In this document: one piece after another, positions 298 to 41,957 of the stretch
Layout: each line of letters begins with the position of its first letter
Numbering within the stretch: the first letter of the stretch is position 1
UHGV virus genome: UHGV-0204900
Source: a virus
Reading direction: 5' to 3' (one strand)
DNA: 42,057 bases
The notes under the pieces: model-generated
The model's database searches: none
The model's input: the letters and a program-made list of their open reading frames with translations, nothing else
What the model was told of the DNA's origin: nothing
Made by a program: the position numbers and the translations under genes

Positions 298-753
298 ATG
301 AATTTTGATATCAACATTATCAGAGCTGAAATTGAAGATTGGGCGGTAGAACAAGGGCAAGAACATGTTGCCATTGAGATTAGCCGAGCTTACTTACGAT
401 TAGTGGTTAATCAAGAACATGGTCGATTATATGCCATTGAGGATCAAACGGGTAAGGCCGACTGGAAAGCAATCAATAATAACCGGCAACAGATATTCCG
501 CTGGTTAAGAGGTGATTCCCGTGCATCTCAAAGAAAGATTGCTGAGTTAATGCCAGCGATAGAAATAGCACTACCGGCTTCGAGACTGGCTAGAGTTCGT
601 GGAGACACCAAAAATTATTTAGCAACAGTGGCCATTCAGCGTTTTGCTGATGCTATGACAGAAATTTTATTAGAAGGTCGTGACATGTCACACCAAATAA
701 ACAATGTAGTACGTGCGTTAAATGAGATATCACGCCCGACCAGCGTGCATTAA
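298..753 (+). CDS. YdaT-like (CII-analogous) regulatory protein
   Basis: 151 aa. Blocks such as IFRWLRGDSRASQRKIAELMPAIEIALPASRLARV resemble the Rac prophage YdaT family. Sits immediately downstream of the cro-like gene. Confidence 0.65.
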   Translation: MNFDINIIRAEIEDWAVEQGQEHVAIEISRAYLRLVVNQEHGRLYAIEDQTGKADWKAINNNRQQIFRWLRGDSRASQRKIAELMPAIEIALPASRLARVRGDTKNYLATVAIQRFADAMTEILLEGRDMSHQINNVVRALNEISRPTSVH

Positions 754-765
754 GAGGCAAGACCA

Positions 766-990
766 ATGATTAGATCAACTGAAAAAATTACATACCGTAA
801 TGGGTTTATGCTGAATGATAAACCTGCCCATATATCAGAAATTAGGGATATTTTTGAGGGTAGACGTGTTATTGCGTTGTTAGTTTGGGAGCAGTATGAG
901 AAGCAGAAACAAAAATTACTGTCAAAAAATTTAACCCCTGCACAGTATCAAAGTGCATGTCGATCAATAGCTAAATCGTTGGGGGTGTGA
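766..990 (+). CDS. hypothetical early protein
   Basis: 74 aa ORF. Preceded by the conserved box AAGAGGCAAGACCAATG (752-768). Tightly packed between the ydaT-like and replication genes. Confidence 0.6.
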   Translation: MIRSTEKITYRNGFMLNDKPAHISEIRDIFEGRRVIALLVWEQYEKQKQKLLSKNLTPAQYQSACRSIAKSLGV

Positions 991-3375: not shown

Positions 3376-4626
3376 GTGATTTTTAAGAATATAAATAACC
3401 CTAAGAGGGGTAGTGAAAATGAAAGAAGAGCCAGTTGGTATAATTATTATGCTGGTTTTTCTCATACATTTGTCAGAAATTTAATAAATGATCTGCATTT
3501 ATCAAAAGAATCAGTCATTTTAGATCCTTGGAATGGTTCTGGTGCAACTACATATGCTGCTAGTATTGAAGGTTACCAATCCATTGGAAGTGATTTGAAT
3601 CCACCAATGTATGTTATTGCTAAGTCTAAAATGGCAGATAAAAACGATGTAATAAATGCACTGGCTAAAATAAAAAAAATGAGAGTCAATGTATTCTCAT
3701 GTATTTTTGATTCAGATGATTATTTAAATAATTGGTTTGTTCATCAAACTGCTAGTTATATTAGATATATAGATTTTTTCATCTGTAAAAAGATGAATGT
3801 TGATATAAATACAAAGTTACATCTGCTTAGTAAAGTTGATTGTTTATTATATGTGGCATTATTTAATACTATTAGATTATTAATAAAATCATTTGTTTCT
3901 TCAAATCCAACATGGATAAAAAAGGCAAAGGGAGCTAATAATAAGATAAGAGTTGATAATAGATTTATTAAACAATCCATCATTAACTTACTTAATGAAA
4001 AATTAGATGTTGATGATTTTCCTTTAATTAATAAGGATGCTTTTTTCTTATCTGAAGATGTGAAAAATTTATCTCTTAAAGATAAATCTATAGATATTGT
4101 TATTACATCCCCACCTTATTGTACTCGAATTGATTATGGCATTGCCACTTCACCGGAATCAGCGGTATTATATGGTAATAATCCTATTCAGATAGAAGAA
4201 ATGCGTCGTAGATTAATGGGAAGAACTACAATTGATAAAACATTCTATGATGGAATATCTTTTAGTAGTACTACGGATGAATTTTTATCGTCTATATATG
4301 AGCATAAATCAAGGGCTTCAAACACCTATTACTACAAGAATTTTTATCAATATTTTTTAGATCTTAATTTATCATTAATTGAAATTAATCGAGTTCTTAA
4401 GAATGATGGTTATTTTGTGTGTGTTGTGCAAGATTCATATTATAAAGAAATTCATTGTGACTTATCTCAGATTATTACTGAATTACTTGATAGCAACGGA
4501 TTCAAATTACTACAAAAGAAAGAGTTTGAATCTACAGTTAATATGGCTAACCTAAATAATAAATCAAAGATTTATCGTGATAAAATGGTAGCTACCGAAT
4601 ATGTGTTAATCTTTTCGCGAGGATAG
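3376..4626 (+). CDS. DNA methyltransferase (N6-adenine or N4-cytosine; motif I DPWNGSGAT, motif IV SPPY)
   Basis: 416 aa with a FxGxG-type AdoMet motif and an SPPY catalytic motif. No in-frame ATG before motif I, so start is GTG at 3376 with a weak RBS (start uncertain). Very AT-rich codon usage shared with the next two genes. A 4-nt gap separates it from the downstream gene. Confidence 0.8.
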   Translation: MIFKNINNPKRGSENERRASWYNYYAGFSHTFVRNLINDLHLSKESVILDPWNGSGATTYAASIEGYQSIGSDLNPPMYVIAKSKMADKNDVINALAKIKKMRVNVFSCIFDSDDYLNNWFVHQTASYIRYIDFFICKKMNVDINTKLHLLSKVDCLLYVALFNTIRLLIKSFVSSNPTWIKKAKGANNKIRVDNRFIKQSIINLLNEKLDVDDFPLINKDAFFLSEDVKNLSLKDKSIDIVITSPPYCTRIDYGIATSPESAVLYGNNPIQIEEMRRRLMGRTTIDKTFYDGISFSSTTDEFLSSIYEHKSRASNTYYYKNFYQYFLDLNLSLIEINRVLKNDGYFVCVVQDSYYKEIHCDLSQIITELLDSNGFKLLQKKEFESTVNMANLNNKSKIYRDKMVATEYVLIFSRG

Positions 4627-4630
4627 TGGA

Positions 4631-5752
4631 ATGAGTACAGAAGTAATATTAACTGAAATAGAATCCAAAATAGAAAAAGTTCATACACAGAGCTTAGATT
4701 TATCTTTTAATGAACTTCTTAGTATGTATGAAAATGAAGAATTAGATATTAGTCCTGATTATCAACGCTTATTTAGATGGTCCGAAGGAGCAAGATCAAG
4801 GTTTATTGAATCTTTAATATTAGAGATGCCTGTACCTCCTATTTATGTAGTGGAGACAGACTCAGGTGCTTATCAGCTTATTGATGGATTACAGCGCTTT
4901 TCATCTTATTTACATTTAAGAGGAGAACTTGATGCTAAACATATGGGAGTAAATAAAGGTGATTTCTTAATTTTATCAGATTGTGACATAATTGATTCTA
5001 TCAATGGTATGACATTTAATGATTTACCTATGGCTTTAAAAATAAAGTTAAAACGTTCTTTTGTAAGAGTTGAAATAGTAAGAAAAGGAAGTGATAAAAA
5101 ATTCAAATATCATATGTTTAAGAGATTAAATACAGGTGGTGAAGCATTAACAGAACAACAGATTAGAAATTGTACGATAAGAATGTTAGATCCTAAGTTT
5201 AATGACTTTATAATAATGTTATCAGAAACAGATGATTATCTGAACTGTATAGCAAATTTGTCTGATTCTCAAAGATATGGATCTTATGATCAAGAACTTG
5301 TATTAAGATATTTTTCTTTAAAGAATAATAAAGATGGATTTAAACATGATGTTGCAGATTTCATGACTGAATATATGGAATCTGTAGCAGGAGAGACAGT
5401 GGATTTTAATTATGACGAAAATGAACAAAATTTTCTAAAGGTATTTAAATTATTTAATAAAGCTCATGGTGATAAAATATTCGGAAGATTGAATAGCCAG
5501 AATAATAAATTGCAATCTAATTTTGGAATATACCATTTTGAATCACTTTGTATGGGGATTCAGTGTGTTCTAGATAGAATAGATATAAATAATGAAGAGC
5601 ATATCAAAAAATTTTCTCAAGCAGTAATTTCTTTAAAAGGTAATGCCGATTTTAAAACAGAAACAACTGGAGGAGGAAAAAATTCTACTGGATTGTTAAA
5701 TAAACGAATAAAAATTGCGGAGGGATTCTTTTCGGAGGCTTTCAGTGACTAG
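4631..5752 (+). CDS. DUF262 (ParB/Srx-like, GmrSD N-terminal-type) domain protein
   Basis: 373 aa with the hallmark PDYQR...W motif and IDGLQRFSS (DGQQR-type) motif. GAGGA RBS 9 nt upstream. AT-rich. Confidence 0.85.
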   Translation: MSTEVILTEIESKIEKVHTQSLDLSFNELLSMYENEELDISPDYQRLFRWSEGARSRFIESLILEMPVPPIYVVETDSGAYQLIDGLQRFSSYLHLRGELDAKHMGVNKGDFLILSDCDIIDSINGMTFNDLPMALKIKLKRSFVRVEIVRKGSDKKFKYHMFKRLNTGGEALTEQQIRNCTIRMLDPKFNDFIIMLSETDDYLNCIANLSDSQRYGSYDQELVLRYFSLKNNKDGFKHDVADFMTEYMESVAGETVDFNYDENEQNFLKVFKLFNKAHGDKIFGRLNSQNNKLQSNFGIYHFESLCMGIQCVLDRIDINNEEHIKKFSQAVISLKGNADFKTETTGGGKNSTGLLNKRIKIAEGFFSEAFSD

Positions 5753-6437
5753 TGAGGAATTTTTAACACAGATAGAATTAGATAGGGCATGGAGAGAAGA
5801 AGAAATTCGAACTATGAATAATATCTTAACAGAGCTGAAGGATGATAATGATAAAAATAAATTAAGGCGGGCAATTATTTGTTTGCTCTATGCTCACATT
5901 GAAGGTTTTGTTAAATTTTCATTTGGTTTGTACATAGAATCAATTAATGGATTAAAGTTAAAATGTCAAGATGTTAAACCTATATTAATAGCTGCTGTTT
6001 ATCATAAGGATTTTAGTAAACTCACAGACCCTGATGCTAAAAGTAAATTATTCACTAAAAAAGCACAAGAAGATAAATATATTAGAAGAATTTGTTTGCA
6101 AGAAGAGTTTTTTGAAAGAATTAATGATGTTTTTAATTCTGAAATAAAAATAGATGACGGGTACATTAATACAGAAAATAATGTGGGTAGGGAAGTTCTT
6201 GAGAAGCTACTATATCAAGTGGGTTTATCTCATAAGTCTTTAGATAATACAATTGGACCATTATCTAGGTTATTAAATAAAAGAAATGATATTGCTCATG
6301 GAACAGATAAAAGTTCCATTAAAGCCGAACATTATGATGAATATTTCAAGTGTGCTTTAGGTATCATGAAAGAGCTTACAAGTACATTATTTTTAGCATA
6401 TAGTAAAAAGGATTACTTGAAGCAATCTATAGTTTAA
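5745..6437 (+). CDS. HEPN-domain protein (Rx4H motif RNDIAHG; MAE_28990/MAE_18760-like)
   Basis: About 230 aa. Conserved R-x4-H in LLNKRNDIAHGT near the C-terminus. Probable GTG start at 5745 with a GGAGG RBS 6 nt upstream, overlapping the DUF262 stop by 8 nt (GTGACTAG). The ORF track gives a TTG start at 5715. Confidence 0.7.
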   Translation: MTSEEFLTQIELDRAWREEEIRTMNNILTELKDDNDKNKLRRAIICLLYAHIEGFVKFSFGLYIESINGLKLKCQDVKPILIAAVYHKDFSKLTDPDAKSKLFTKKAQEDKYIRRICLQEEFFERINDVFNSEIKIDDGYINTENNVGREVLEKLLYQVGLSHKSLDNTIGPLSRLLNKRNDIAHGTDKSSIKAEHYDEYFKCALGIMKELTSTLFLAYSKKDYLKQSIV

Positions 6438-6521: not shown

Positions 6522-7115
6522 ATGGCACAGCATAGCTTTATCAAAATGTCTAACGATACTCTTGTACCGGCTAACCCTGTTACGAGAGATTTTCTGCATT
6601 CAAAAATCAAATGTGGTGATGTGCTTTCAGCTAATTTTAAGAAAGCCCGTAACCCTCGATTCCATCGTAAATACTTCGCATTACTCAACTTAGGGTATGA
6701 ATATTGGGAACCCGTTGGCGGTACCATTTCACCTGAAGAAAAAGAGCTTGTGTGTGGTTACATCACATTCCTTTCATATTACACGGATAATACTGACGCG
6801 CTTTTATCCGCATCTGATATCTATCTTGAAGAAGTCGCACAAAATCGTGCGCAAAATATTTCAGCAACAAAATCTTTTGATGCTTTTCGCTATTGGGTTG
6901 TAGAGCAAGCCGGTTATTACGATACGTTTGAAATGCCTGACGGTAGTTTACGCCGTGTCGCTAAATCAATCAGCTTTGCAAATATGGACGACTTAGCATT
7001 TAGCGAACTCTACAAAGCCACACTCGATGTGCTTTGGAATTTTATTCTTCGTAAGCAATTCCCCACTCAAAAAGCTGTAGAAAATACAGTATCTCAATTA
7101 TTAAGTTTCACGTAG
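6522..7115 (+). CDS. nin-region hypothetical protein (possibly DUF1367/YbcN-like)
   Basis: 197 aa ORF with core-genome GC content. Occupies the position of nin-region genes between the replication module and Q. Confidence 0.55.
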   Translation: MAQHSFIKMSNDTLVPANPVTRDFLHSKIKCGDVLSANFKKARNPRFHRKYFALLNLGYEYWEPVGGTISPEEKELVCGYITFLSYYTDNTDALLSASDIYLEEVAQNRAQNISATKSFDAFRYWVVEQAGYYDTFEMPDGSLRRVAKSISFANMDDLAFSELYKATLDVLWNFILRKQFPTQKAVENTVSQLLSFT

Positions 7116-7126
7116 AGGCAAGACCA

Positions 7127-7438
7127 ATGATCAAATCAAAGACCAAAGATGAAAAAAAGTGGCTATCAGATGTAGCGGAACTGGGTTGTATTTGTTGTCG
7201 CAATATGGGGTTTGGAGCCAGTTTAGCGGAAATTCATCATGTTAGAACGGGGCAGGGAATGGCACAACGGGCTAGTCATACGGATGTTTTACCACTGTGT
7301 CCTCCACATCATAGAGCGTGTTACGAAACCGGCTTTCACGCTTCGCCTAAATCGTGGCAAGAAATTCATGGTACCGAAATTGAGTTGTTAGAACAGACTA
7401 AGCAAGAAGTAATGGAGTTACGAGCATGTCGAGTATAA
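7127..7438 (+). CDS. YbcO-like (DUF1364) putative nuclease
   Basis: 103 aa. Cys/His pattern GCICCRN...AEIHHVRTGQGM...LPLCPPHH matches the YbcO-family arrangement. Preceded by the conserved box TAGAGGCAAGACCAATG. Confidence 0.65.
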   Translation: MIKSKTKDEKKWLSDVAELGCICCRNMGFGASLAEIHHVRTGQGMAQRASHTDVLPLCPPHHRACYETGFHASPKSWQEIHGTEIELLEQTKQEVMELRACRV

Positions 7439-8121: not shown

Positions 8122-8319
8122 ATGTTAAAACATAGTGATATGACAGAAGAGGCAAGACTTGTTTTTGAAGTTGTTCCGCACACGATGGAAATTACAGCTG
8201 GCGAAGTTGCAGAATTTACTTATTTAACTGAGCCACGTTGTCAATTGATATTAACGCAGTTGGCGATGGCGGGACTAATCAAAGAAAACATCAAAGAAAA
8301 CACATTTCAAAATATCTAA
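8122..8319 (+). CDS. hypothetical small protein
   Basis: 65 aa ORF between tR' and the late-region MTase. Contains an internal copy of the GAGGCAAGAC box. Confidence 0.4.
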   Translation: MLKHSDMTEEARLVFEVVPHTMEITAGEVAEFTYLTEPRCQLILTQLAMAGLIKENIKENTFQNI

Positions 8320-34425: not shown

Positions 34426-34710
34426 ATGAAAAATCCAAGTATTGATAAGCTTCAGAAACAGATAAAAGAAGTGGAACATGCAACAGTAGCGCTGGATGGT
34501 AGTTATAATGTCAATTATGATGCGAATGATCTAGCTAGTATTGAAAATGCAATTCAGGAGGCATGCAGTTTAGTTGATGAACGAGCTTCACAGTACCAAA
34601 CAAATCCTCTCGTCATACCCATAATAGAGCGGGTGAAAGAAAATCTGCGAGAACAGATACTCAATGATGCTGAGCAACAAAGAAATGGGGTGAAGAAAGA
34701 TGGCTATTGA
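34426..34710 (+). CDS. hypothetical small protein (first gene of AT-rich cassette)
   Basis: 94 aa with an AGGGAG RBS. Overlaps the downstream gene by 11 nt. Confidence 0.55.
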   Translation: MKNPSIDKLQKQIKEVEHATVALDGSYNVNYDANDLASIENAIQEACSLVDERASQYQTNPLVIPIIERVKENLREQILNDAEQQRNGVKKDGY

Positions 34711-35599
34711 TATTTTTCAGTCACTGAAAAATGCAGTATTCGATTTACAGCGTGCTGATCTTCAGAACTATCATCAGCCTCTTAAACAGCTAGCTCGTCT
34801 ACTGAAATCGGATGAATTAATCAATATTAATAACTCATTAATACAGGGTGTTAATATTGATGACTTTCTAGCTTCAAGCTACGCCACAGAATCAAGCATG
34901 GCGGGATCTGCAACGCTTCGTTGGCCTGATGAACCATTAGAAATTCTCGGTATCAAGTTGCTTTTAATTGAAAAAATGGCTCGGGATGAAAATTTTACCT
35001 TTAATTTCTGCCATAAATTTTTTTATGATAGAAAGGTAATTGAATCAATAAGGAAATTTACTTCATCCTTCCTCGTTACTTTTATACGTGATTATCAGCT
35101 ATATGTTCAGAATCAGTCAGAACTTAAGCCCAAGATAATACAAAATATCTCTCGTAAGATATTTATTGTTCATGGACACGATTCTGCAACACTTCATGCA
35201 GTGGCTCGTTTTATAGGTAAGATTGGCTTGGAAGAAATTATTCTTTCTGAACGGCCAGATGGTTCGAGAACGATAATTGAAAAATTTGAAGAGGAATCTG
35301 GTGACGCTAGTTTTGCTATCGTACTGATGACGCCTGATGATAATGGAAATGCCGTTGCATCGGAAAACCTAAAGCTTCGCGCTCGTCAGAACGTTCTTTA
35401 TGAACTGGGCTATTTTACTGGCAAGCTAGGGCGGGGGAAAGTTATGGTGCTGAAAAAGGGTGATATAGAAATACCCTCAGATCTGGCAGGTGTCCTATAT
35501 ACGGAACTTGATGAACATAATGGCTGGAAACGAAAACTTATAAGCGAACTGGATTATGCTGGAGTTCCATTCGATAAAGCTAAAGCTCTCATTGCCTAA
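34700..35599 (+). CDS. protein with C-terminal TIR-like nucleotide-binding domain (COG4271 / Cap12-PycTIR-type) and unknown N-terminal domain
   Basis: The C-terminal 150 aa KIFIVHGHDSATLHAVARFIGKIGLEEIILSERPDGSRTIIEKFEE...FAIVLMTPDD...RARQNVLYELGYFTGKLGRGKVMVL...PSDLAGVLY matches the conserved pattern of the predicted nucleotide-binding TIR-like family. N-terminal 150 aa are unassigned. Confidence 0.7.
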   Translation: MAIDIFQSLKNAVFDLQRADLQNYHQPLKQLARLLKSDELININNSLIQGVNIDDFLASSYATESSMAGSATLRWPDEPLEILGIKLLLIEKMARDENFTFNFCHKFFYDRKVIESIRKFTSSFLVTFIRDYQLYVQNQSELKPKIIQNISRKIFIVHGHDSATLHAVARFIGKIGLEEIILSERPDGSRTIIEKFEEESGDASFAIVLMTPDDNGNAVASENLKLRARQNVLYELGYFTGKLGRGKVMVLKKGDIEIPSDLAGVLYTELDEHNGWKRKLISELDYAGVPFDKAKALIA

Positions 35600-35772: not shown

Positions 35773-36948
35773 TCAAGCAATTTCACAATGTGGCACTTCA
35801 ACCCATTGTACATGGTTTTCTGTATAAATCTTGGTTGACTCCGCATCACTGTGAGCCATTCGAGCTTGTGGATCAAAACCACGTTGTTTAAACATAAAGG
35901 CCGCCAATGCTCTTATTTCATGAAAAGTAGGTCTTTCATCTAAAGATAAATGACTGGCAACACCTACTTGATCGCGTAACGCTGAAAATGCACGACTAAG
36001 GTAATCAGGTGCAACTTGTGTTGGATGATTAACTTCTTTACTTACCTTATTTGGGATGCGAGTAGGTAATCTATGCACAATATAAGGGCTTGCCACATTG
36101 TCACGACTATTATCAATGATTTCTTTTAATGCCTTTCCTATGGGAATAGCAACGTGAGACGCTTCTTTGTATTGTACTTTCTGCCTATGGATATAGATCA
36201 TTCCATATATTCCATTTTTAGGCTCCTCATACCAAACACACCCACATATTCCTTCTTTAGGTGCTTTGATATTGTATTTTATGCGTGACACTTCGAGCCT
36301 TGCTTGCGTTGTCTGTAATGCGAGATCCATTGCTGTTCTTAACCAAGGCTCTGCGGATGCTCGAATTTTAAGAAAGTCATCATAAGATAATCTTCTACGT
36401 TTTTTACCATCGACTCTTTTCATTTTCTTACGTTCTGCTGGGTTATCGAACATAAGAGATTCATCTATCGCATAACTGAAAATTTTCTTTAAAAAACCTA
36501 CTTTTCGATTTTGTACATTGGCAGAAGCTTCAGCATGGTATTCATTAATAAATCCATTAACGTGTTCCAAAGATATTTCATTTGATGGAATATCCTTAAA
36601 AAAGGATTTCACTCTTTCTAGGTCGTTAGTCCAGTCATTCAACGTGCTTTTAGATGGTTGTTCATCATTGATGATCCGAGAAAACAATTTATCTAAATGC
36701 TCAGAGAAGGGAAGGGCTTCACCATATTGCCCTCCCGAGTCAATAATTAATGAGTTAACAGAAACACATTTTTCTGGTCGCATAATATTGTTGTATTCTC
36801 TGGCTATTGCGATAGCTTTTGCTTTATCTGCACCAATACATTTGCGAATACCGTTAGTTAGCGTTAAACGATATTGTTTTTTAGATGAATCGTAATATAG
36901 GAAGTCAGGCAAATGCCTAAATTCCTTTCTTCTTGGTCTACTGGCCAT
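35773..36948 (-). CDS. int: tyrosine integrase
   Basis: 391 aa. C-terminal catalytic signature HEIRALAAFMF...(H-x-x-R) and KIYTENH (catalytic Tyr region). Adjacent to the att core and excisionase. Confidence 0.9.
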   Translation of the reverse strand: MASRPRRKEFRHLPDFLYYDSSKKQYRLTLTNGIRKCIGADKAKAIAIAREYNNIMRPEKCVSVNSLIIDSGGQYGEALPFSEHLDKLFSRIINDEQPSKSTLNDWTNDLERVKSFFKDIPSNEISLEHVNGFINEYHAEASANVQNRKVGFLKKIFSYAIDESLMFDNPAERKKMKRVDGKKRRRLSYDDFLKIRASAEPWLRTAMDLALQTTQARLEVSRIKYNIKAPKEGICGCVWYEEPKNGIYGMIYIHRQKVQYKEASHVAIPIGKALKEIIDNSRDNVASPYIVHRLPTRIPNKVSKEVNHPTQVAPDYLSRAFSALRDQVGVASHLSLDERPTFHEIRALAAFMFKQRGFDPQARMAHSDAESTKIYTENHVQWVEVPHCEIA

Positions 36949-36949
36949 A

Positions 36950-37162
36950 TCACGAAGCCCTTATTAACTCATCGACACATGAAGAAATAACGGACTCGAT
37001 ACCCCAACGTTCTGATGAATGTACCCAAACAGAACAATCAACGATTTTGCCTTTTAATAAGCCAGTTTCTACCCATTTTTTTATGGTTCTATTATCTGGA
37101 ATTGAACCTATTTCAAATTCTCGTTTAGCCCACGCACTAGCTTTCATCAGTTTTCCGCTCAT
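36950..37162 (-). CDS. xis: excisionase-like small DNA-binding protein
   Basis: 70 aa, abutting the int start. Preceded by the conserved box GAGGCAAGACCAAAATG. Basic winged-helix-like segment RTIKKWVETGLLKGKIVD. Confidence 0.5.
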   Translation of the reverse strand: MSGKLMKASAWAKREFEIGSIPDNRTIKKWVETGLLKGKIVDCSVWVHSSERWGIESVISSCVDELIRAS

Positions 37163-37334
37163 TTTGGTCTTGCCTCATCATTAATAAAATAAGTCGGTCT
37201 GTTGTATCACAGGAGTGTTTGATTTCAGCGTCAGTGCATGGTCTATTTCTTACACTGAACGCTAACCGACCTAATTTAATATCAAAACTTGTTAATAATT
37301 GGTTCCCTGGTTTCCAAGGTGTTAATAATTTCAT
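37137..37334 (-). CDS. questionable small ORF
   Basis: 66 aa from ATG 37334 with a weak RBS. Overlaps the xis start by 26 nt. The longer 37379 start in the ORF track is less likely. Confidence 0.25.
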   Translation of the reverse strand: MKLLTPWKPGNQLLTSFDIKLGRLAFSVRNRPCTDAEIKHSCDTTDRLILLMMRQDQNERKTDES

Positions 37335-37406
37335 GGTGGTTACCCATTGGTCTTGAATAAACCACCATGCTAATAACAACGAAAAGTAAAAACTGATTAT
37401 GCTTAA

Positions 37407-37577
37407 TCAACTTTTTACCCGAATAATTCCTTCTACTGGATAGCACTCTGCAATTTTCCCTTTGGTCGCGAGTAATTCCTTATCAATTAAACAATTTTGT
37501 TCATTGGGATAAATATAACCGTAGGGCTCGAACTGACAATTCACTGAACTGCATATCAAAAGGAATAAACCAAACAT
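37407..37577 (-). CDS. small Cys-containing protein (56 aa), unannotated
   Basis: The start overlaps the upstream stop as TAATG (translational coupling). Four Cys residues (C9, C14, C29, C45). Below the ORF-track cut-off. Confidence 0.4.
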   Translation of the reverse strand: MFGLFLLICSSVNCQFEPYGYIYPNEQNCLIDKELLATKGKIAECYPVEGIIRVKS

Positions 37578-37747
37578 TATTGTTCACTCCTTTGTTGCTC
37601 AACGGGAGAGGGTTGAAGTTCAATTTTGACGTGTGCTGGAAAGTCGTATGAAACATGGCAACGTCTATCTGTTGAAACAAAGCCATGTGTACCATCAGGT
37701 AATGTGATCTTTACGGCTTGGTCTTTTTGTTGAGAGTGTCTTAGCAT
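37577..37747 (-). CDS. small early protein (56 aa)
   Basis: Start at 37747 sits directly behind the conserved box CGAAGAGGCAAGACCAATG. The track's longer 37774 start is unsupported. Confidence 0.5.
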   Translation of the reverse strand: MLRHSQQKDQAVKITLPDGTHGFVSTDRRCHVSYDFPAHVKIELQPSPVEQQRSEQ

Positions 37748-37775
37748 TGGTCTTGCCTCTTCGTGACATGTCACG

Positions 37776-37955
37776 CTAATGAATGATAGCTGTATTTATA
37801 GGATGCCACAGTTGTAGCAATAACGCTTTTTGCATCGATGAAAGGGCTTGCTGTTCTTGCTCTGTGACATTTTTTGTTGATGCCGTAGACCATTCGATAC
37901 TGCATTTATTTGTTGTTTCATCATGAGTGATGACAACTTCTAACTTCATGGCCAT
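37776..37955 (-). CDS. small early protein (59 aa), unannotated
   Basis: Strong RBS CAGGAGATAAACGTT before ATG. Fills the gap between the Gp157-like gene and the next small gene. Confidence 0.5.
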   Translation of the reverse strand: MAMKLEVVITHDETTNKCSIEWSTASTKNVTEQEQQALSSMQKALLLQLWHPINTAIIH

Positions 37956-38002
37956 AACGTTTATCTCCTGATAATGCGCCCAATAAAGGGCGCTATTATG
38001 AA

Positions 38003-38503
38003 TTAACGAACCATTAATGATCGGTCACCAACTTCTAAGTGAGCACCAGGTATTTCAATTCCGTTTTCAATCGCTTCTTTGATGCCTTTTTTATCAGGTG
38101 CAGTGATGGTTTGAACATCAACCAACTCATCCGGCAACAAAGCCTCATTGTCAATAATGACTCGAACAACACCAGCTCTAGCAGTGAATGTATTTTTTGT
38201 TGTTTTTAATTTATCTAATCCTGAAGCTAATAAGCAGTTAAGAGCATATTTCTTTAGGTTTTTAGCTTGGTTTTCGAATGATTTTTTACGATCAGATAAA
38301 CGTTTAGATTCCTCATCAAGTGTTTTAGCTTGACCTTCGATATTACGAACGTGGTGCATAATCGCATCTAATTTGTCACCTAACTCGCCCTCGATACCTT
38401 CCAGCGTATCTGCGATATCTTCAGGAGAGAATTCTCCTGTTTCAACGAGTTGTTGTAATTTTTCGTAATTGGTCGCCAGTGCAATAGCGGTAGTTTTGGT
38501 CAT
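38003..38503 (-). CDS. Gp157-like protein (Sipho_Gp157 family; recombination-module partner)
   Basis: 166 aa from the start at 38503, behind the box variant AAGAGGCAATCTAATG. Coiled-coil N-terminus. Immediately downstream of the SSAP gene, the usual Gp157 position. Confidence 0.55.
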   Translation of the reverse strand: MTKTTAIALATNYEKLQQLVETGEFSPEDIADTLEGIEGELGDKLDAIMHHVRNIEGQAKTLDEESKRLSDRKKSFENQAKNLKKYALNCLLASGLDKLKTTKNTFTARAGVVRVIIDNEALLPDELVDVQTITAPDKKGIKEAIENGIEIPGAHLEVGDRSLMVR

Positions 38504-40479
38504 TAGATTGCCTCTTCTTTCTGTTTCAGTTGGTCTAAACACTCTTTTTCGATTTGGTTTAATCGACGTAAACGGCCGGATAAATATTTCTCGTAATCGT
38601 TGTCACGACGTTCTTGTGCTGATTTAATATGTGCAGAAATTTCGCGCGTTAATGTAGATGCAATGCCTCGCAATTCATTCTCAGTAACAGCACTACGCAT
38701 AACTTCCGTATGTTTAGTAAATTTCTCGTCTAATTCTTTGCGAATACGCGTGATATCTTCAGCTTTTTCACTCGCGTTTTTAATTTCAAATTCAAGTTTA
38801 TTACTTGCTAAGTATTCAGGGTTATCGTGCATTCCCATAAAGACATCAGAGCTAAAGCCAAGCATTGATAGGGCTTTTTTGATGGCATCAGTTAGTGATT
38901 TTTTAATAGCTTCAGGGTCTGATTTCATTCCCCTAGTTGTCATATATCTGTAAGGGGTAGCTCCATAACTTTCAAATTCAGCTTTTTTACCCTTTTCGGT
39001 TATGTACCAGAATTTAATTTTGATAGAGTGATTTTCTTCATACTTTAGAGAACCATCACCATCGCGTAGAAAGCGAACACCAATTTGTTTGTTATTTTCG
39101 TCAAATACTCGTTCGGTCATTGGGTTTCCGGGTACAAGCTTTTCTTCGATAACTTCGTAACTCCATCCTTCACCGATAGGGCCAAATATTTCAGTAGCAC
39201 GCATAATCATGTAATTGCTGTTTATGCTAGTTCCTGCAAACCCTACACCTTCTAATGGCTTGGTAAATCGTGGGTCTGTTCGTTGCACGCGTTTCCAGAT
39301 ATGTAGATTATTGGAATCACCTGCGTTAAGAACTTCATCAAGCACACTAGCTCGTTGCTCAAAATTATCGTGTTGCACTGATGGTGTCTCAGACTCTTTA
39401 GGTTCTTCGGGTTCTTCAGTTTGTTCGAACACTGGAGAAACCTCTGTTTTTGGGGGTTCTTCTTGTTTCTTACGTGAACGCTTAGGCTTGGTTTCTTTCT
39501 CAACTGTATTTTCTTTGGATACTAAAGAAGCATTATCTGTTTGAATTAACTTAGTTGTAATTTCTTCTTTTTTAGTGTCGTTAGGTTTGCTAATCCCCAA
39601 ATGGAGATCAATCAATTCTTTCCGTGCATTAGGGTTATCTAATAACTCAGGCTGTTTTTTACTTTCAGCGATTAACGCGAAAATCTTTTCACGAGGTATA
39701 TCTAAAATGCCAGCTGTTGTACGTAAATCCATTGACCAGCGTTTCCATGCTTTGTTGTCATCATCTATCAGCTCTTTGGCTTTTTTTACTTGGGATGCAA
39801 GAACATTGTTAGGATCAAAGTCATCTAACAGTGCTAAGGCGATTTCAGTATCTATGGTTGAATAGTTACGCTTGATAGAAGATATCTCTTCTTGTTGTTG
39901 CTCTGGTTCTTCTGTTAGCCAGCTTTCACCTAGTGATTTAGCTTCTTCAACGGTGACATCTTCATTAGCAAACTCATAGATAGCCTGTGCTATTTCCATC
40001 GTTTGCTCAGCATCCATCAAAGATAATTTTGTTATTTCAGCAAGGCCTGTGGCGATATTACGAATTTTGGGGTCTTCTTTGCCTGCAAGGTATTTCAGAG
40101 CAATTGAGAATTCATTGTTAGTTATTTGAGTCTTGCCAAATAGTAATAGACTGGCTATACGAGGTTTTGTGGCTAGCTTTTTAAACTCTCTATATTCGAT
40201 AGGTTTCCATTGAGTACCGTCATACTCATTTTCAACAGCAAATTTTTCATCGAAAGCATCTAAAGTAGGGCATGCAGAACCGTCAAGATGTTCGCTAATT
40301 AACGGCTCATCGGTATTAAAGTTATCCATTGCTTCTGGATATGCTTCAGATAATTTTACTACGGCAGTCGCTGTTGCAAGTTTTGCATTAGCGGTGTTTA
40401 ACGCTATTGCTAACGGTACAGCACCGTTGTTTGTACGAGCCTCGGTCGTAGGCTCAAATACACAGATAAAAGTTTTCAT
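38503..40479 (-). CDS. single-strand annealing protein, Rad52/Sak-like C-terminal domain fused to a large N-terminal extension
   Basis: 658 aa. The C-terminal 250 aa contain Rad52-type blocks GFAGTSINSNYMIMRATEIFGPIGEGW...GMKSDPEAIKKSLTDAIKKALSMLGF. The N-terminal 330 aa are unassigned, followed by a Glu/Lys/Pro-rich acidic linker. Start behind the conserved box. Confidence 0.65.
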   Translation of the reverse strand: MKTFICVFEPTTEARTNNGAVPLAIALNTANAKLATATAVVKLSEAYPEAMDNFNTDEPLISEHLDGSACPTLDAFDEKFAVENEYDGTQWKPIEYREFKKLATKPRIASLLLFGKTQITNNEFSIALKYLAGKEDPKIRNIATGLAEITKLSLMDAEQTMEIAQAIYEFANEDVTVEEAKSLGESWLTEEPEQQQEEISSIKRNYSTIDTEIALALLDDFDPNNVLASQVKKAKELIDDDNKAWKRWSMDLRTTAGILDIPREKIFALIAESKKQPELLDNPNARKELIDLHLGISKPNDTKKEEITTKLIQTDNASLVSKENTVEKETKPKRSRKKQEEPPKTEVSPVFEQTEEPEEPKESETPSVQHDNFEQRASVLDEVLNAGDSNNLHIWKRVQRTDPRFTKPLEGVGFAGTSINSNYMIMRATEIFGPIGEGWSYEVIEEKLVPGNPMTERVFDENNKQIGVRFLRDGDGSLKYEENHSIKIKFWYITEKGKKAEFESYGATPYRYMTTRGMKSDPEAIKKSLTDAIKKALSMLGFSSDVFMGMHDNPEYLASNKLEFEIKNASEKAEDITRIRKELDEKFTKHTEVMRSAVTENELRGIASTLTREISAHIKSAQERRDNDYEKYLSGRLRRLNQIEKECLDQLKQKEEAI

Positions 40480-40491
40480 TGGTCTTGCCTC

Positions 40492-40824
40492 TTAATAAGG
40501 GATTTCTTCGTCAGTTTTTGAAATGGGTTTGCCTTCCAAGCAGAGAAGCATTTGGATTTGATCTTCTAACAAGCTTGATTTCACTTGGGCATCAGCAAGA
40601 ATTTTTTCTTGTTCATTGCGTAGAAAATCAATTTCAGCGTGAATGAGATCAGTTTGAGTAGGCTCTTTAAAAGGGACATCAACAGTATGTTCCGCGATAA
40701 CAAAACCTAGTCCAGCATTGGGATCGGCTTTAAATGCGTAGGCGTTATATTGATAAGAACCATCGAACTGTTTTTGAGCGTGAATATAGAGTGTGACGGT
40801 TAGGCTTTCAGGTTGTGCTTTCAT
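40492..40824 (-). CDS. hypothetical early protein (first gene of leftward operon)
   Basis: 110 aa with a good AAGGAG RBS. Confidence 0.55.
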   Translation of the reverse strand: MKAQPESLTVTLYIHAQKQFDGSYQYNAYAFKADPNAGLGFVIAEHTVDVPFKEPTQTDLIHAEIDFLRNEQEKILADAQVKSSLLEDQIQMLLCLEGKPISKTDEEIPY

Positions 40825-40940
40825 AGCAACTCCTTTAAAATAACGGCGATCAGTGATTTATCATTGGTCTTGCCTCTTCTAGCGTTTGGTCGCGCTAGTA
40901 GAACTCTCGGTTAGCTTTGGTCGGCGACCCGAGGTAAAGG

Positions 40941-40963
40941 AACCCACTTCGGTGGGTTTTTTT
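40941..40963 (+). terminator. plus-strand hairpin plus T-run in the pL leader (candidate antisense sRNA terminator or put/nut-like RNA structure)
   Basis: AACCCAC TTCG GTGGGTT followed by TTTTTT. No plus-strand gene upstream. A second hairpin CTAGCG..CGCTAG lies at about 40873-40894. Confidence 0.45.
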
Positions 40964-41101
40964 ACGTCTGTAACTTATTGCTCGTCTTTCCGAGCCGTCA
41001 TGGTCATATCTTTGTAGCTTTGGTCTGAAATATTCCCTAGTGCTGAATAAGAAGATCTGAACACTTACCTAAACACTTGCTGTGTTGTTTCGAATTAATG
41101 C

Positions 41102-41201: not shown

Positions 41202-41957
41202 TTATGCAAAATCAATCATTCTAATAGGGAGTGATTTTATTACTTTTCCAATAATTCGAAGATCATACATTTCTGATTCTTCAATATAAAACGTTTCATA
41301 AGCAGGATTATCCGATTTAACAGCCAGTTTTCTACCTTTAACTCGTTGTAATCTTTTTATAAATAATGAGTTTTCGAAACTAAAAATATAAACACCATCA
41401 CCATCAAAAAACTCATTGTGGGTGTCAACAAAAACAACATCTCGAGGGTTAATAGCAGGGGACATACTGTCGCCACTAATGTTAATTATTTCAATTCCTT
41501 TTAAGCTTTTACGACCAAATAACTCAAAAACTTTCTCCGGCGAAAACTCAATAGATTTTATGGTGTCAGGGAAATCGTTATTTATAAAGCCACCGGGACC
41601 TGCTTTTGCATATACATCCATTAGTTTTAATGTTGTATGTTCATTTTGAGTGGACGGCATTGGTTGTTTTGTTTCTTCTTCTTTTCTTGTTTTTCTAACG
41701 TAGTCTAATAAAATTTTTAGCTCTGGGTTAATATCTTCCGGATCAACCCTCAATAATGATGCAAACTTTAGAATAGTATCTGTATTTAAAGCTGTTCTAC
41801 CGTTCAGATACTGACTTACGGCACCTTGAGTTGCAAACCCCATAATATCTGCAGCTTTTTCTTGAGTTAAGCCCAGAGATTCTCTTTTGGATTCCCAAAT
41901 ATTTCGTAAGTTCTGAGCTGCAATTTTGTCTGATTCTGAAATTTTTCTATTCATCAT
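41202..41957 (-). CDS. cI: CI-like repressor (HTH_XRE plus S24 LexA-like autopeptidase)
   Basis: HTH LGLTQEKAADIMGFATQGAVSQYLNG in the N-terminal half. Ser-Lys dyad motifs GDSMSP and FIKRL in the C-terminal half. Divergent from cro across a three-operator region. Confidence 0.9.
   Translation of the reverse strand: MMNRKISESDKIAAQNLRNIWESKRESLGLTQEKAADIMGFATQGAVSQYLNGRTALNTDTILKFASLLRVDPEDINPELKILLDYVRKTRKEEETKQPMPSTQNEHTTLKLMDVYAKAGPGGFINNDFPDTIKSIEFSPEKVFELFGRKSLKGIEIINISGDSMSPAINPRDVVFVDTHNEFFDGDGVYIFSFENSLFIKRLQRVKGRKLAVKSDNPAYETFYIEESEMYDLRIIGKVIKSLPIRMIDFA

Follow-up and report, generated by a model that had tools for sequence, protein, structure and literature searches.

How does one short sequence, including the spacer that separates the Shine-Dalgarno (SD) element from the initiation codon, come to stand at the starts of unrelated genes of a single phage? 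This question is raised by UHGV virus genome UHGV-0204900, a stretch of 42,057 bp (hereafter, the window) that represents a complete, probably circular genome of a temperate lambdoid phage. Here, the sequence GAGGCAAGACCAATG (hereafter, the box), which consists of GAGG, an A/C-rich spacer of 8 nt, and ATG and adjoins the upstream stop codon, recurs at the starts of early genes on both strands. Our analysis points to a very likely gene for an antisense small RNA (sRNA), located opposite the leader of the leftward early operon (pL), and the box is probably the target site of this phage-encoded RNA, which would act in trans and block the SD sequence and the AUG of early genes in both early operons.

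Box copies at the starts of early genes

Five exact copies of the box are present in the window, whereas 0.00 were expected from 100 dinucleotide shuffles, which agrees with the proposal of an initial annotation that the box is reused at early-gene starts far beyond chance. All five end in an ATG that opens an open reading frame (ORF; Table 1). When up to three mismatches were allowed, eight copies were found (0.87 expected), adding those at 37162-37176 and 37345-37359 on the minus strand, the latter of which reads TATTCAAGACCAATG and lacks an SD sequence. No copy, either exact or with up to three mismatches, was found in the late/structural region (8.2-37.1 kb), and the SD/spacer combinations of the remaining genes are ordinary and diverse. 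The box also has the makeup of an ordinary ribosome-binding site (RBS), with GAGG 8 nt ahead of the ATG and -5.2 kcal/mol for the SD alone. Two incomplete copies had to be moved from their first assignments, i.e. from 37338-37348 to 37345-37355 and from 8148-8160 to 8146-8158.

The box settles several start-codon calls. The corrected starts at 37747 and 38503 were reproduced by an independent gene call made on the source contig (Logan SRR8652849_141; 42,087 bp), which gives products of 56 and 166 amino acids (aa), respectively. The sequence GAGGCAATCTAATG ahead of the Gp157-like gene was rightly counted as a box; it is a genuine derivative, and other clades carry GAGGCAGACCAATG or GAGGCAAACCAATG ahead of this gene. 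The start of xis is ambiguous: a box variant is indeed present at the proposed position (37162), implying a product of 70 aa, whereas the independent gene call prefers the next ATG (65 aa). The gene starting at 40479, previously designated SSAP, encodes a 658-aa YdfE/phrog_2489 exonuclease. Two nucleotides upstream of the box of the 56-aa gene lies a perfect 14-bp palindrome, CGTGACATGTCACG (37762-37775, minus strand), which is kept in most relatives and replaced by unrelated sequence in some; Pectobacterium phage ZF40 (see below) has a CUGACCA-loop hairpin at this position. The palindrome may serve as an operator in the DNA or form a short hairpin in the RNA.

A probable antisense sRNA gene opposite the pL leader

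The exact copy in the pL leader, which opens only the four-codon ORF MINH*, had been described as an orphan. It is an exact box, but it does not appear to serve primarily as a translation start; rather, it is the image of an sRNA seed encoded on the opposite strand. In a permissive-threshold scan of the pL leader, the Rfam family isrB (RF01386) matched the plus strand over the full model (30-31.7 bits, E ~3e-4), and the antisense of this box copy was therefore recognized as a very likely gene. The match shares the loop GCUUUGGUCGG and the terminator, and the seven U's are present on the plus strand only. The homologous regions of two relatives (L314 and L316) score 38.4 bits, above the curated gathering threshold of 35 bits. 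With our own covariance model, the window sRNA scores 143.9 bits, and full-length matches were obtained in Providencia (144 bits), Proteus (134), Xenorhabdus (124), Photorhabdus (113), Yersinia (102), and many viral contigs. Searches of deposited phages by blastn with the sRNA returned only terminator-like matches.

The antisense strand was aligned across 49 distinct relatives, in which the identity of the protein encoded by the first pL gene (110 aa) ranges from 39 to 99%. The conserved block starts at the -35/-10 pair and ends exactly at the T7 terminator, beyond which similarity collapses; promoter and terminator are thus conserved as a unit, as expected of a base-pairing sRNA. The predicted promoter lies partly over the SD sequence and initial codons of the 110-aa gene, which is encoded on the opposite strand. 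Its -10 element varies only among TAAAAT, TATATT (in distant clades), and TATAAT, and the promoter is recreated in L314, where an insertion of 22 nt supplies a TTGTGT-18-TATAAT. Downstream, a variable stretch of ~20 nt is followed by ATTGGTCTTGCCTCT, which is invariant in 49 of the 49 relatives. The seed is in fact more invariant than its targets, among which single variants occur.

The window sRNA folds with a minimum free energy (MFE) of -52.6 kcal/mol (z = -5.41). In the relatives, all seven pairs of hairpin 1 covary, and the stem of hairpin 2 covaries around the invariant loop UAGCUUUGGUCGGCGA. RNAalifold adds a 5' hairpin 0 (GAUCAGUGA/UCAUUGGUC), which holds the 5' half of the complement of the box (the anti-box) and leaves its 3' half single-stranded; this half, UUGCCUCUU, is an anti-Shine-Dalgarno mimic and is unpaired in both the MFE and the consensus folds. 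Overall, 98.6% of the cells are paired and eight pairs show compensatory change, compared with 36-59% pairing in slid controls, in a model-fitted alignment of 26 distinct sequences, a type of alignment that leans toward the structure of the model. Many pairs of the sRNA are G.U pairs, and the fold belongs to the antisense RNA because these would be A.C mismatches on the mRNA strand. At 40936-40966 (both strands), the hairpin ACCCAC-TTCG-GTGGGT is flanked by an A-run and, at its other end, by a T-run, and it could also partly terminate or pause pL transcription (TTCCTTT, minus strand).

Among the mechanisms suggested initially for the box, the sRNA seed site is the one supported, by a conserved, very likely antisense gene that carries the exact complement of the box; no evidence was found for a protein regulator or an RNase processing site.

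Complementarity to start sites, hairpin loops, and the leader

The 5' region of the sRNA, CAUUGGUCUUGCCUC(UU), is the exact complement of (AA)GAGGCAAGACCAAUG and the perfect complement of every box (its reverse complement is CTAGAAGAGGCAAGACCAATGATAAATCA). Contiguous complementarity covers 19 nt at the 74-aa gene, 18 nt each at the Ref-like, exonuclease, and 56-aa genes, 13 nt at xis, and 10 nt at the Gp157-like gene. At the Ref-like gene, the 18 matching nucleotides are followed by one base and then by AAATC, which accounts for the ATGAT.A.ATCA that three copies have in common. The net cofolding energies are -35.0 (74-aa gene), -26.6 (56-aa gene), -22.0 (Ref-like), -17.9 (exonuclease), -16.7 (xis), and -12.2 kcal/mol (Gp157-like), with a median of -6.3 kcal/mol for 44 genes. 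The box at 752-768 is therefore the predicted strongest target, and the partial copy at 8146-8158, within an ORF that starts at 8122 and yields -17.3 kcal/mol, is a possible additional pairing site. An RNAduplex scan for a separate anti-box elsewhere in the phage detected only the antisense of the box copies themselves.

Hairpins upstream of the boxes provide a further type of complementarity. The loop of the hairpin at 731-747 contains GACCA, complementary to the UUGGUC of the sRNA loops, and among relatives the stems of this hairpin covary (ATGCGC/GCGCAT, ACGT/ACGT, and GCGC/GCGC) around a constant loop. Upstream of boxes, GACCA (present in 22 of 80 dissimilar contexts) ranks first among the 5-mers and nearly always lies in a hairpin loop, whose stem differs from case to case (e.g. 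CACGC/GCGTG, ATGCGC/GCGCAT, ACGG/CCGT, GCGC/GCGC, CTGACGG/CCGTCAG, and GGGCGGA/TCCGCCC). In the GACCAA-loop class, seven of seven pairs show compensatory change and 89% of the cells are paired, compared with 49% after shuffling; stems of at least 3 bp were pre-selected, a choice that raises the percentage of paired cells artificially but could not by itself produce covariation across 7 bp. For the NNGACCA class, covariation supports the four inner pairs. The common target loop, CUGACCA, starts with the YUNR (U-turn) motif typical of antisense recognition loops.

Similar sites are found within the pL operon. The sense strand of this 4-kb operon (36900-41050, minus strand) contains 14 copies of GACCAA, which makes up the 3' half of the spacer, compared with ~1 expected, and the copies often lie within the first codons (ATGACCAA...); they may be many weak sites for the sRNA loops. 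The 5' pL leader contains, outside the sRNA gene, the sequence GACCAAAGCTA, an exact complement of the hairpin-2 loop UAGCUUUGGUC, which in 42 of 77 relatives is followed after 2-3 nt by AAGGCA(A)GACC. The order of the two elements is antiparallel, as would be expected if one sRNA molecule paired with both.

Conservation of the box in related phages

An exact-match scan of viral contigs yielded 230 copies of the box in 120 stretches, and these precede six recurrent gene families and the mini-ORF MINH* (27 copies). In species-representative genomes, most hits were single and due to chance. More than one copy per locus was found in Proteus (five within 8 kb), Providencia, Photorhabdus, and Rouxiella, and Xenorhabdus, Yersinia, and Symbiopectobacterium had single copies. 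Each of these Enterobacterales hits lies in a prophage, ahead of a homologue of one of the same phage genes, some of the homologues being only 31-55% identical. Protein-anchored searches, used against ascertainment bias, located the box at the same junctions in ~80 related prophages (of Proteus, Providencia, Xenorhabdus, Photorhabdus, and Yersinia), in ZF40, and in Stenotrophomonas phage BUCT708. The scan of relatives for which the initial annotation had called thus recovered the motif at the same starts. Orthologous junctions retain the box even where protein identity is as low as 33-50%, and non-homologous genes have it in common. This conservation of the whole SD-spacer-ATG block supports the earlier suggestion that the box is more than an RBS.

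The exonuclease junction illustrates this conservation. The box is present at nearly all of 78 loci that encode homologues of the exonuclease (identity of 49-96%); in 40 distinct contexts (down to 50% identity), positions -13 to +3 are 93-100% conserved, compared with 40-80% upstream, where at least four different genes are found. The box is likewise kept at the 56-aa, Gp157, xis, 74-aa, and Ref-like junctions, including 60 protein-anchored loci for the 74-aa gene, 80 for the Ref-like gene, and 37 with the xis variant. Variants with insertions or deletions (GAGGCAGACCAATG, GAGGCAAAGACCAATG, and GAGGCAAGACCAAAATG) retain both halves of the box. The box string is not mentioned in the ZF40 genome paper, and a full-text literature search returned only unrelated primer sequences.

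The predicted sRNA and its putative targets in phages ZF40 and BUCT708

Megablast gave no hit among deposited phages, i.e. no close relative, and the nearest isolate is ZF40, with an exonuclease 38% identical to that of the window. Here, the box precedes gp13, gp16, gp18, gp07, gp05, and gp03. The covariance model identified the sRNA at 5232-5363 on the plus strand (50 bits, E ~1e-10), with a perfect TATAAT at the same place as the -10 element of the window, abutting the true start of the homologue of the 110-aa gene. Pairing of the ZF40 anti-box, UAUUGGUCUUGCCUUG, with the ZF40 box, CGAGGCAAGACCAAUG, involves two G.U pairs, and in hairpin 0 a G-C pair is replaced by A-U, a compensatory change. 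The copy within the ZF40 sRNA gene has no ATG on the mRNA strand but retains AGGCAAGACCAAUA. A leader site at 6067-6080 was rejected as the ZF40 sRNA gene, having neither promoter nor terminator. In the ZF40 sequence (JQ177065, L460; 4919-5407), the start of gp08 is annotated as a GTG at 5407, whereas the homologue of the 110-aa protein starts at the ATG at 5212 (MKAPEITITLYIH vs MKAQPESLTVTLYIH). The annotated start of gp08 is thus probably wrong, and the upstream 150 nt would encode the antisense sRNA instead.

BUCT708 is more distant (exonuclease 33.5% identical, ~60% GC), and its sRNA scores 42.7 bits. Every box copy is changed to GAGGAAAGACCA in this phage, with the same C-to-A substitution in all six; four gene starts and both leader sites, one of which is the sRNA gene itself, read G/AAGGAAAGACC (GAGGAAAGACC). 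The sRNA reads UGGUCUUUCCUC, CUGACCA-loop hairpins precede two of the boxes, and the position of the second leader site reads AAGGAAAGACCA. All copies have changed in concert, in one lineage only, which differs from an independent covariation of sRNA and targets. That the change includes the copy that starts no protein is what selection driven by pairing would predict.

Alternative explanations for the box

It is conceivable, but unlikely, that the box is only a shared, efficient initiation or coupling cassette that was spread by descent or recombination and kept by the constraints of start regions, with the action of the sRNA confined to the pL leader and the 110-aa gene in cis and the other complementarity being a by-product. 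GAGG located 8 nt from the ATG and immediately following the stop codon of the preceding gene corresponds to a normal coupled RBS, and box starts tend to be more open (median 4.3 vs 7.2 kcal/mol), although the trend is not significant (p=0.15), for which reason special accessibility of these regions was rejected as an explanation. Several results weigh against a trans-acting sRNA, and the first three of these are in line with such a cassette. Complementarity to the other boxes is automatic, since the leader copy is itself a box copy, and does not on its own prove a function. In Enterobacterales, the flanks of the sRNA and of its own targets show no co-evolution, cognate and non-cognate pairs scoring alike. 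The IsrB RNAs of the Gifsy type function without boxes: no repeated targets, and only chance 10-mers, were found in their flanks, which suggests that the ancestral RNA works without a box regulon. In one control, the 110-aa gene, the start region (AGGAGTTGCTATGAAAGCACAAC) is conserved as strongly as the box, which we ascribe to the overlapping sRNA promoter. In one subclade (L298, L299, and L315), two or three junctions per genome have C for A before the ATG (GACCCATG) while the leader/sRNA copy remains GACCAATG, so that target-only variants mismatch their own sRNA; this is a concerted change confined to targets. Further reservations concern the RNA itself: the isrB score of the window is under the gathering threshold, the -35 element TTGTGC fits the consensus at three of six positions, a second, weaker promoter candidate exists (TTAAAA-18-TATCAT), the transcription start is placed by sequence comparison, and the 5' half of the anti-box is sequestered in the weak, G.U-rich hairpin 0. 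A cassette leaves unexplained, however, the exact conservation of the spacer to 33-50% identity in seven non-homologous genes, the GACCA-loop hairpins and the second leader site, the same C-to-A change in all six BUCT708 copies, and the finding that the most invariant copy (49/49) is that of the leader, which starts no protein and has no ATG in ZF40. Moreover, a perfect duplex of 15-19 nt over the SD and AUG would pair in vivo if both RNAs are present.

Two further explanations have less in their favour. Recognition of the boxes and GACCA-loop hairpins as operators by an RNA-binding protein of phage or host, similar to CsrA or RegA, with the sRNA being a decoy or unrelated, is improbable. A short motif that recurs in hairpin loops and between SD and AUG does resemble CsrA-type sites, the sRNA has three UUGGUC motifs with rsmX as the second-best Rfam match, and the concerted change in BUCT708 could have followed a shift in protein specificity. 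However, Pfam and PHROG provide no candidate RNA-binding protein among the early genes, no arginine-rich N-like protein is encoded, and a fully complementary RNA already covers every conserved position; the sRNA loops, moreover, present the complement UUGGUC rather than the motif, so that no mimic-type decoy for a GACCA binder is available. More remote still is a role as a recombination linker at gene boundaries, serving module exchange among mosaic lambdoid phages. The exonuclease box is in fact a mosaic joint, where at least four upstream genes abut it and 76 BLAST segment ends fall within 40480-40499, but no breakpoint peak was found at any other box, and neighbours are constant elsewhere (cII-like to 74-aa gene in 51 of 52 contexts and NinB to Ref-like in 31 of 32). 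Homology of 15-17 bp is also short for homologous exchange, and a linker would give no reason for the ATG, the strict orientation, or the leader copy.

Two other candidates were rejected. Pairing of the spacer with the 3' tail of 16S rRNA (-11.2 kcal/mol) is matched by 17% of spacer permutations and 21% of random spacers. A lambda-type nut site (boxB with an N protein) does not fit, as the first pL product is acidic and has no arginine-rich motif, no boxA is present, and the hairpins fold better on the opposite strand.

Proposed mechanism and its implications

We infer the expression of the sRNA, the direction of its effect, and its biological role from its sequence, conservation, structure, and complementarity. 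Under the preferred reading, i.e. a trans-acting sRNA that targets the box, the gene of ~115 nt on the plus strand would be transcribed against the pL leader into a structured RNA ending in an intrinsic terminator, with two further hairpins displaying UUGGUC loops. Pairing would be nucleated by the single-stranded seed, by a loop-loop kiss with the GACCA-loop hairpin located 1-17 nt upstream of many boxes, or by both, and would then zip to a duplex of 13-19 bp in which the SD sequence and the AUG of xis, of the 56-aa and 74-aa genes, and of the genes for the exonuclease and the Ref-like nuclease are buried; the effect would be weaker at the Gp157-like gene. The duplex would block 30S binding and probably make a substrate for RNase III. 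The box doubles as an ordinary functional RBS, and its sequence would be held constant by the need of many targets to fit a single regulator. In lysogens, where pL is off, the sRNA may accumulate and silence leaky early transcripts of both operons, whereas upon induction pL transcription would run into the sRNA promoter and the fully complementary leader would titrate the sRNA.

A bolder and more tentative idea is that the sRNA is a repressor-independent, family-wide immunity factor with the leader as a titration switch, IsrB being its stripped-down relative. If so, then given that box and anti-box are identical in prophages of at least six genera, the sRNA of one prophage would silence the early genes of incoming or co-resident relatives, namely those for recombination, excision, and the replication region, whatever their cI specificity; the sRNA and the pL leader would form a titration switch tying the translation of the pR operon to pL activity; and the system would bear on prophage competition in Proteus, Providencia, and Yersinia. 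In any case, an unexplained repeat is turned into a testable circuit, and the presence of the system in ZF40, which is isolated and genetically tractable, and in a Stenotrophomonas phage makes a direct test possible. The comparison also exposes the gp08 start of ZF40 as a likely misannotation.

Features of the window and genome context

Table 1. Positions of the boxes, the candidate sRNA gene, and associated features in the window
Feature	Position	Strand	Description
Hairpin CACGC-CCGACCA-GCGTG	731-747	+	6 nt upstream of the box at 752, in the 3' end of the cII-like gene
Box AAGAGGCAAGACCAATG	752-768 (exact copy, 754-768)	+	Entire junction from the stop of the cII-like/YdaT gene (298-753) to the ATG of the 74-aa gene (766-990)
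Box TAGAGGCAAGACCAATG	7113-7129 (exact copy, 7115-7129)	+	From the NinB stop to the start of the Ref-like RecA-dependent nuclease (103 aa; 7127-7438)
Partial internal copy GAAGAGGCAAGAC	8146-8158	+	Within a 65-aa ORF (8122-8319)
Box variant GAGGCAAGACCAAAATG	37160-37176	-	Ahead of xis (36950-37162)
10-bp hairpin CATGGTGGTT/AACCACCATG	37332-37369	-	18-nt loop shows CAAGACCAATG, the box core without SD; 3' arm carries the ATG of a 65-aa ORF (37137-37334)
Box AAGAGGCAAGACCAATG	37745-37761 (exact copy, 37745-37759)	-	Ahead of the 56-aa gene (37577-37747)
Degenerate box AAGAGGCAATCTAATG	38501-38516	-	Ahead of the Gp157/Gam-like gene (38003-38503)
Box AAGAGGCAAGACCAATG	40477-40493 (exact copy, 40477-40491)	-	Ahead of the 658-aa YdfE-like exonuclease (38503-40479); also a mosaic joint
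Predicted sRNA promoter	40813-40841	+	-35 TTGTGC (40813-40818), 17-nt spacer, -10 TAAAAT (40836-40841)
Antisense sRNA gene (very likely)	~40847-40963	+	~115 nt; IsrB lineage, 5'-extended; based on Rfam, fold, covariation, and our own covariance model
sRNA hairpin 0	40848-40869	+	
'Orphan' box and MINH* ORF	40850-40876 (exact copy, 40862-40876)	-	mRNA-strand image of the sRNA anti-box and hairpin 0; four-codon ORF from 40864
sRNA anti-box CATTGGTCTTGCCTC	40862-40876	+	Single-stranded part TTGCCTCTT at 40870-40878
sRNA hairpin 1, CTAGCG-TTTGGTCG-CGCTAG	40879-40898	+	Loop UUGGUC
sRNA hairpin 2	40906-40933	+	Loop TTAGCTTTGGTCGGCGAC
sRNA intrinsic terminator	40941-40963	+	
Leader site GACCAAAGCTA	41015-41025	-	Located outside the sRNA gene, in the 5' pL leader; complements the hairpin-2 loop exactly
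cI repressor	41202-41957	-	
Leftward early operon (pL)		-	110-aa gene, 658-aa YdfE-like exonuclease, Gp157/Gam-like, small genes, xis, int
Rightward early operon (pR)		+	cro-like, cII-like/YdaT, 74-aa gene, replication genes, NinB, Ref-like nuclease, Q-like

Three further regions of the window are of note. A gene on the plus strand at 34700-35599, between the tail genes and int, encodes a 299-aa protein with a CAP12-PCTIR TIR domain and lies in a low-GC stretch (29% GC at 32-34 kb); it is likely an anti-phage defence moron beside the attachment site. Two genes of the rightward early operon (3376-5752, plus strand; 416 and 373 aa) have GC contents of 29-34%, well under the phage average, and may be foreign cargo. 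Within the exonuclease gene (38900-39600), BLAST segments against relatives end repeatedly (~40-90 ends per 20-nt bin at 38900-38919, 39140-39159, 39400-39419, and 39580-39599), which indicates that this internal segment is hypervariable or rich in insertions and deletions.

Comparison with known systems

The closest counterpart of the sRNA is IsrB of Salmonella, an experimentally mapped RNA of 88/94 nt encoded in Gifsy-1 and -2 beside the recE-like sbcA and antisense to both neighbours (PMC2330248), which is expressed in the lysogen (PMC7067206). The window sRNA likewise lies in an early-left operon next to a recE/sbcA-type exonuclease, is antisense to flanking genes, and shares the hairpin loop GCUUUGGUCGG, the terminator, and a promoter overlapping the gene start on the opposite strand. 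Gifsy IsrB, however, lacks hairpin 0 and the anti-box, whereas the window RNA has, within its ~115 nt, an extra 5' module that matches five to seven start sites. Since IsrB of the Gifsy type has no anti-box and no repeated targets were found in its flanks, the box regulon appears to be an extended variant of the IsrB family. Genuine copies of the Gifsy type score 80-97 bits with the isrB model; those in L534, L490, L501, L511, and L542 start with AAUAGCACCUCG / AAAGACACCUCG and contain the anti-Shine-Dalgarno-like CACCUC, and their promoter (TGTGTAGAAT/TAGACT) lies, like that predicted in the window, over the start region of an opposite-strand gene. 'IsrB/AzuCR' of E. coli is a different RNA of the same name and was set aside. 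No function for IsrB was found in PMC2330248, PMC12197685, or PMC7067206.

Among phage immunity RNAs, c4 of P1/P7 blocks translation near the RBS through complementarity presented in loops and sets heteroimmunity (PMC12197685). The predicted mode of action of the window sRNA, i.e. pairing around the RBS with complementarity presented in loops, is similar. However, c4 has a single mRNA target (ant/icd) and arises by processing of the same transcript, whereas the sRNA described here is predicted to have an antisense promoter of its own and is complementary to many start sites across two divergent operons. P22 sar, lambda OOP, and BTP1 STnc6030 are small RNAs of immunity or early regions that lower the translation or stability of phage mRNAs, and STnc6030 confers superinfection exclusion (PMC12197685, PMC7067206). 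These RNAs act on the gene that they overlap, whereas the target copies in the window are dispersed at unrelated genes. Dispersed initiation regions are also addressed in phage T4, in which a single phage factor, RegA or RegB, acts on many early genes; these factors are proteins that recognize short, degenerate motifs, in contrast to an RNA with exact complementarity over 13-19 nt.

The repeat itself is best compared with the start-associated sequences (SAS) of Cluster K mycobacteriophages, 13-bp asymmetric repeats with an SD core (consensus GGGATAGGAGCCC, 11-19 copies) that lie just before the ATG of some non-structural genes, in a single orientation, and are kept across subclusters ahead of different genes (PMC3203893). 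About half have an upstream inverted repeat (ESAS), whose arms are conserved without covariation, so that a DNA-binding protein was favoured for it; for SAS, the function of which is unknown, an RNA or protein partner was raised by the authors (PMC3203893). Like SAS, the box lies at a fixed short distance from the ATG, in one orientation, and only at non-structural genes of different families, but the two consensus sequences are unrelated, and the box is an analogue rather than a member. Furthermore, no complementary RNA gene is known for SAS, whereas the arms of the hairpins described here covary around a constant loop and a complementary sRNA gene is present.

In these comparisons, none of c4, sar, OOP, STnc6030, and SAS appears to join a dedicated antisense gene with dispersed exact target copies in two operons. 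While c4, sar, OOP, sas, and STnc6030 each act on one mRNA, overlapped or adjacent, a single small RNA appears to address five to seven start sites in both early operons of this phage, which provides a first functional lead for the IsrB family, known since 2008, and a possible precedent for SAS, whose partner was never found.

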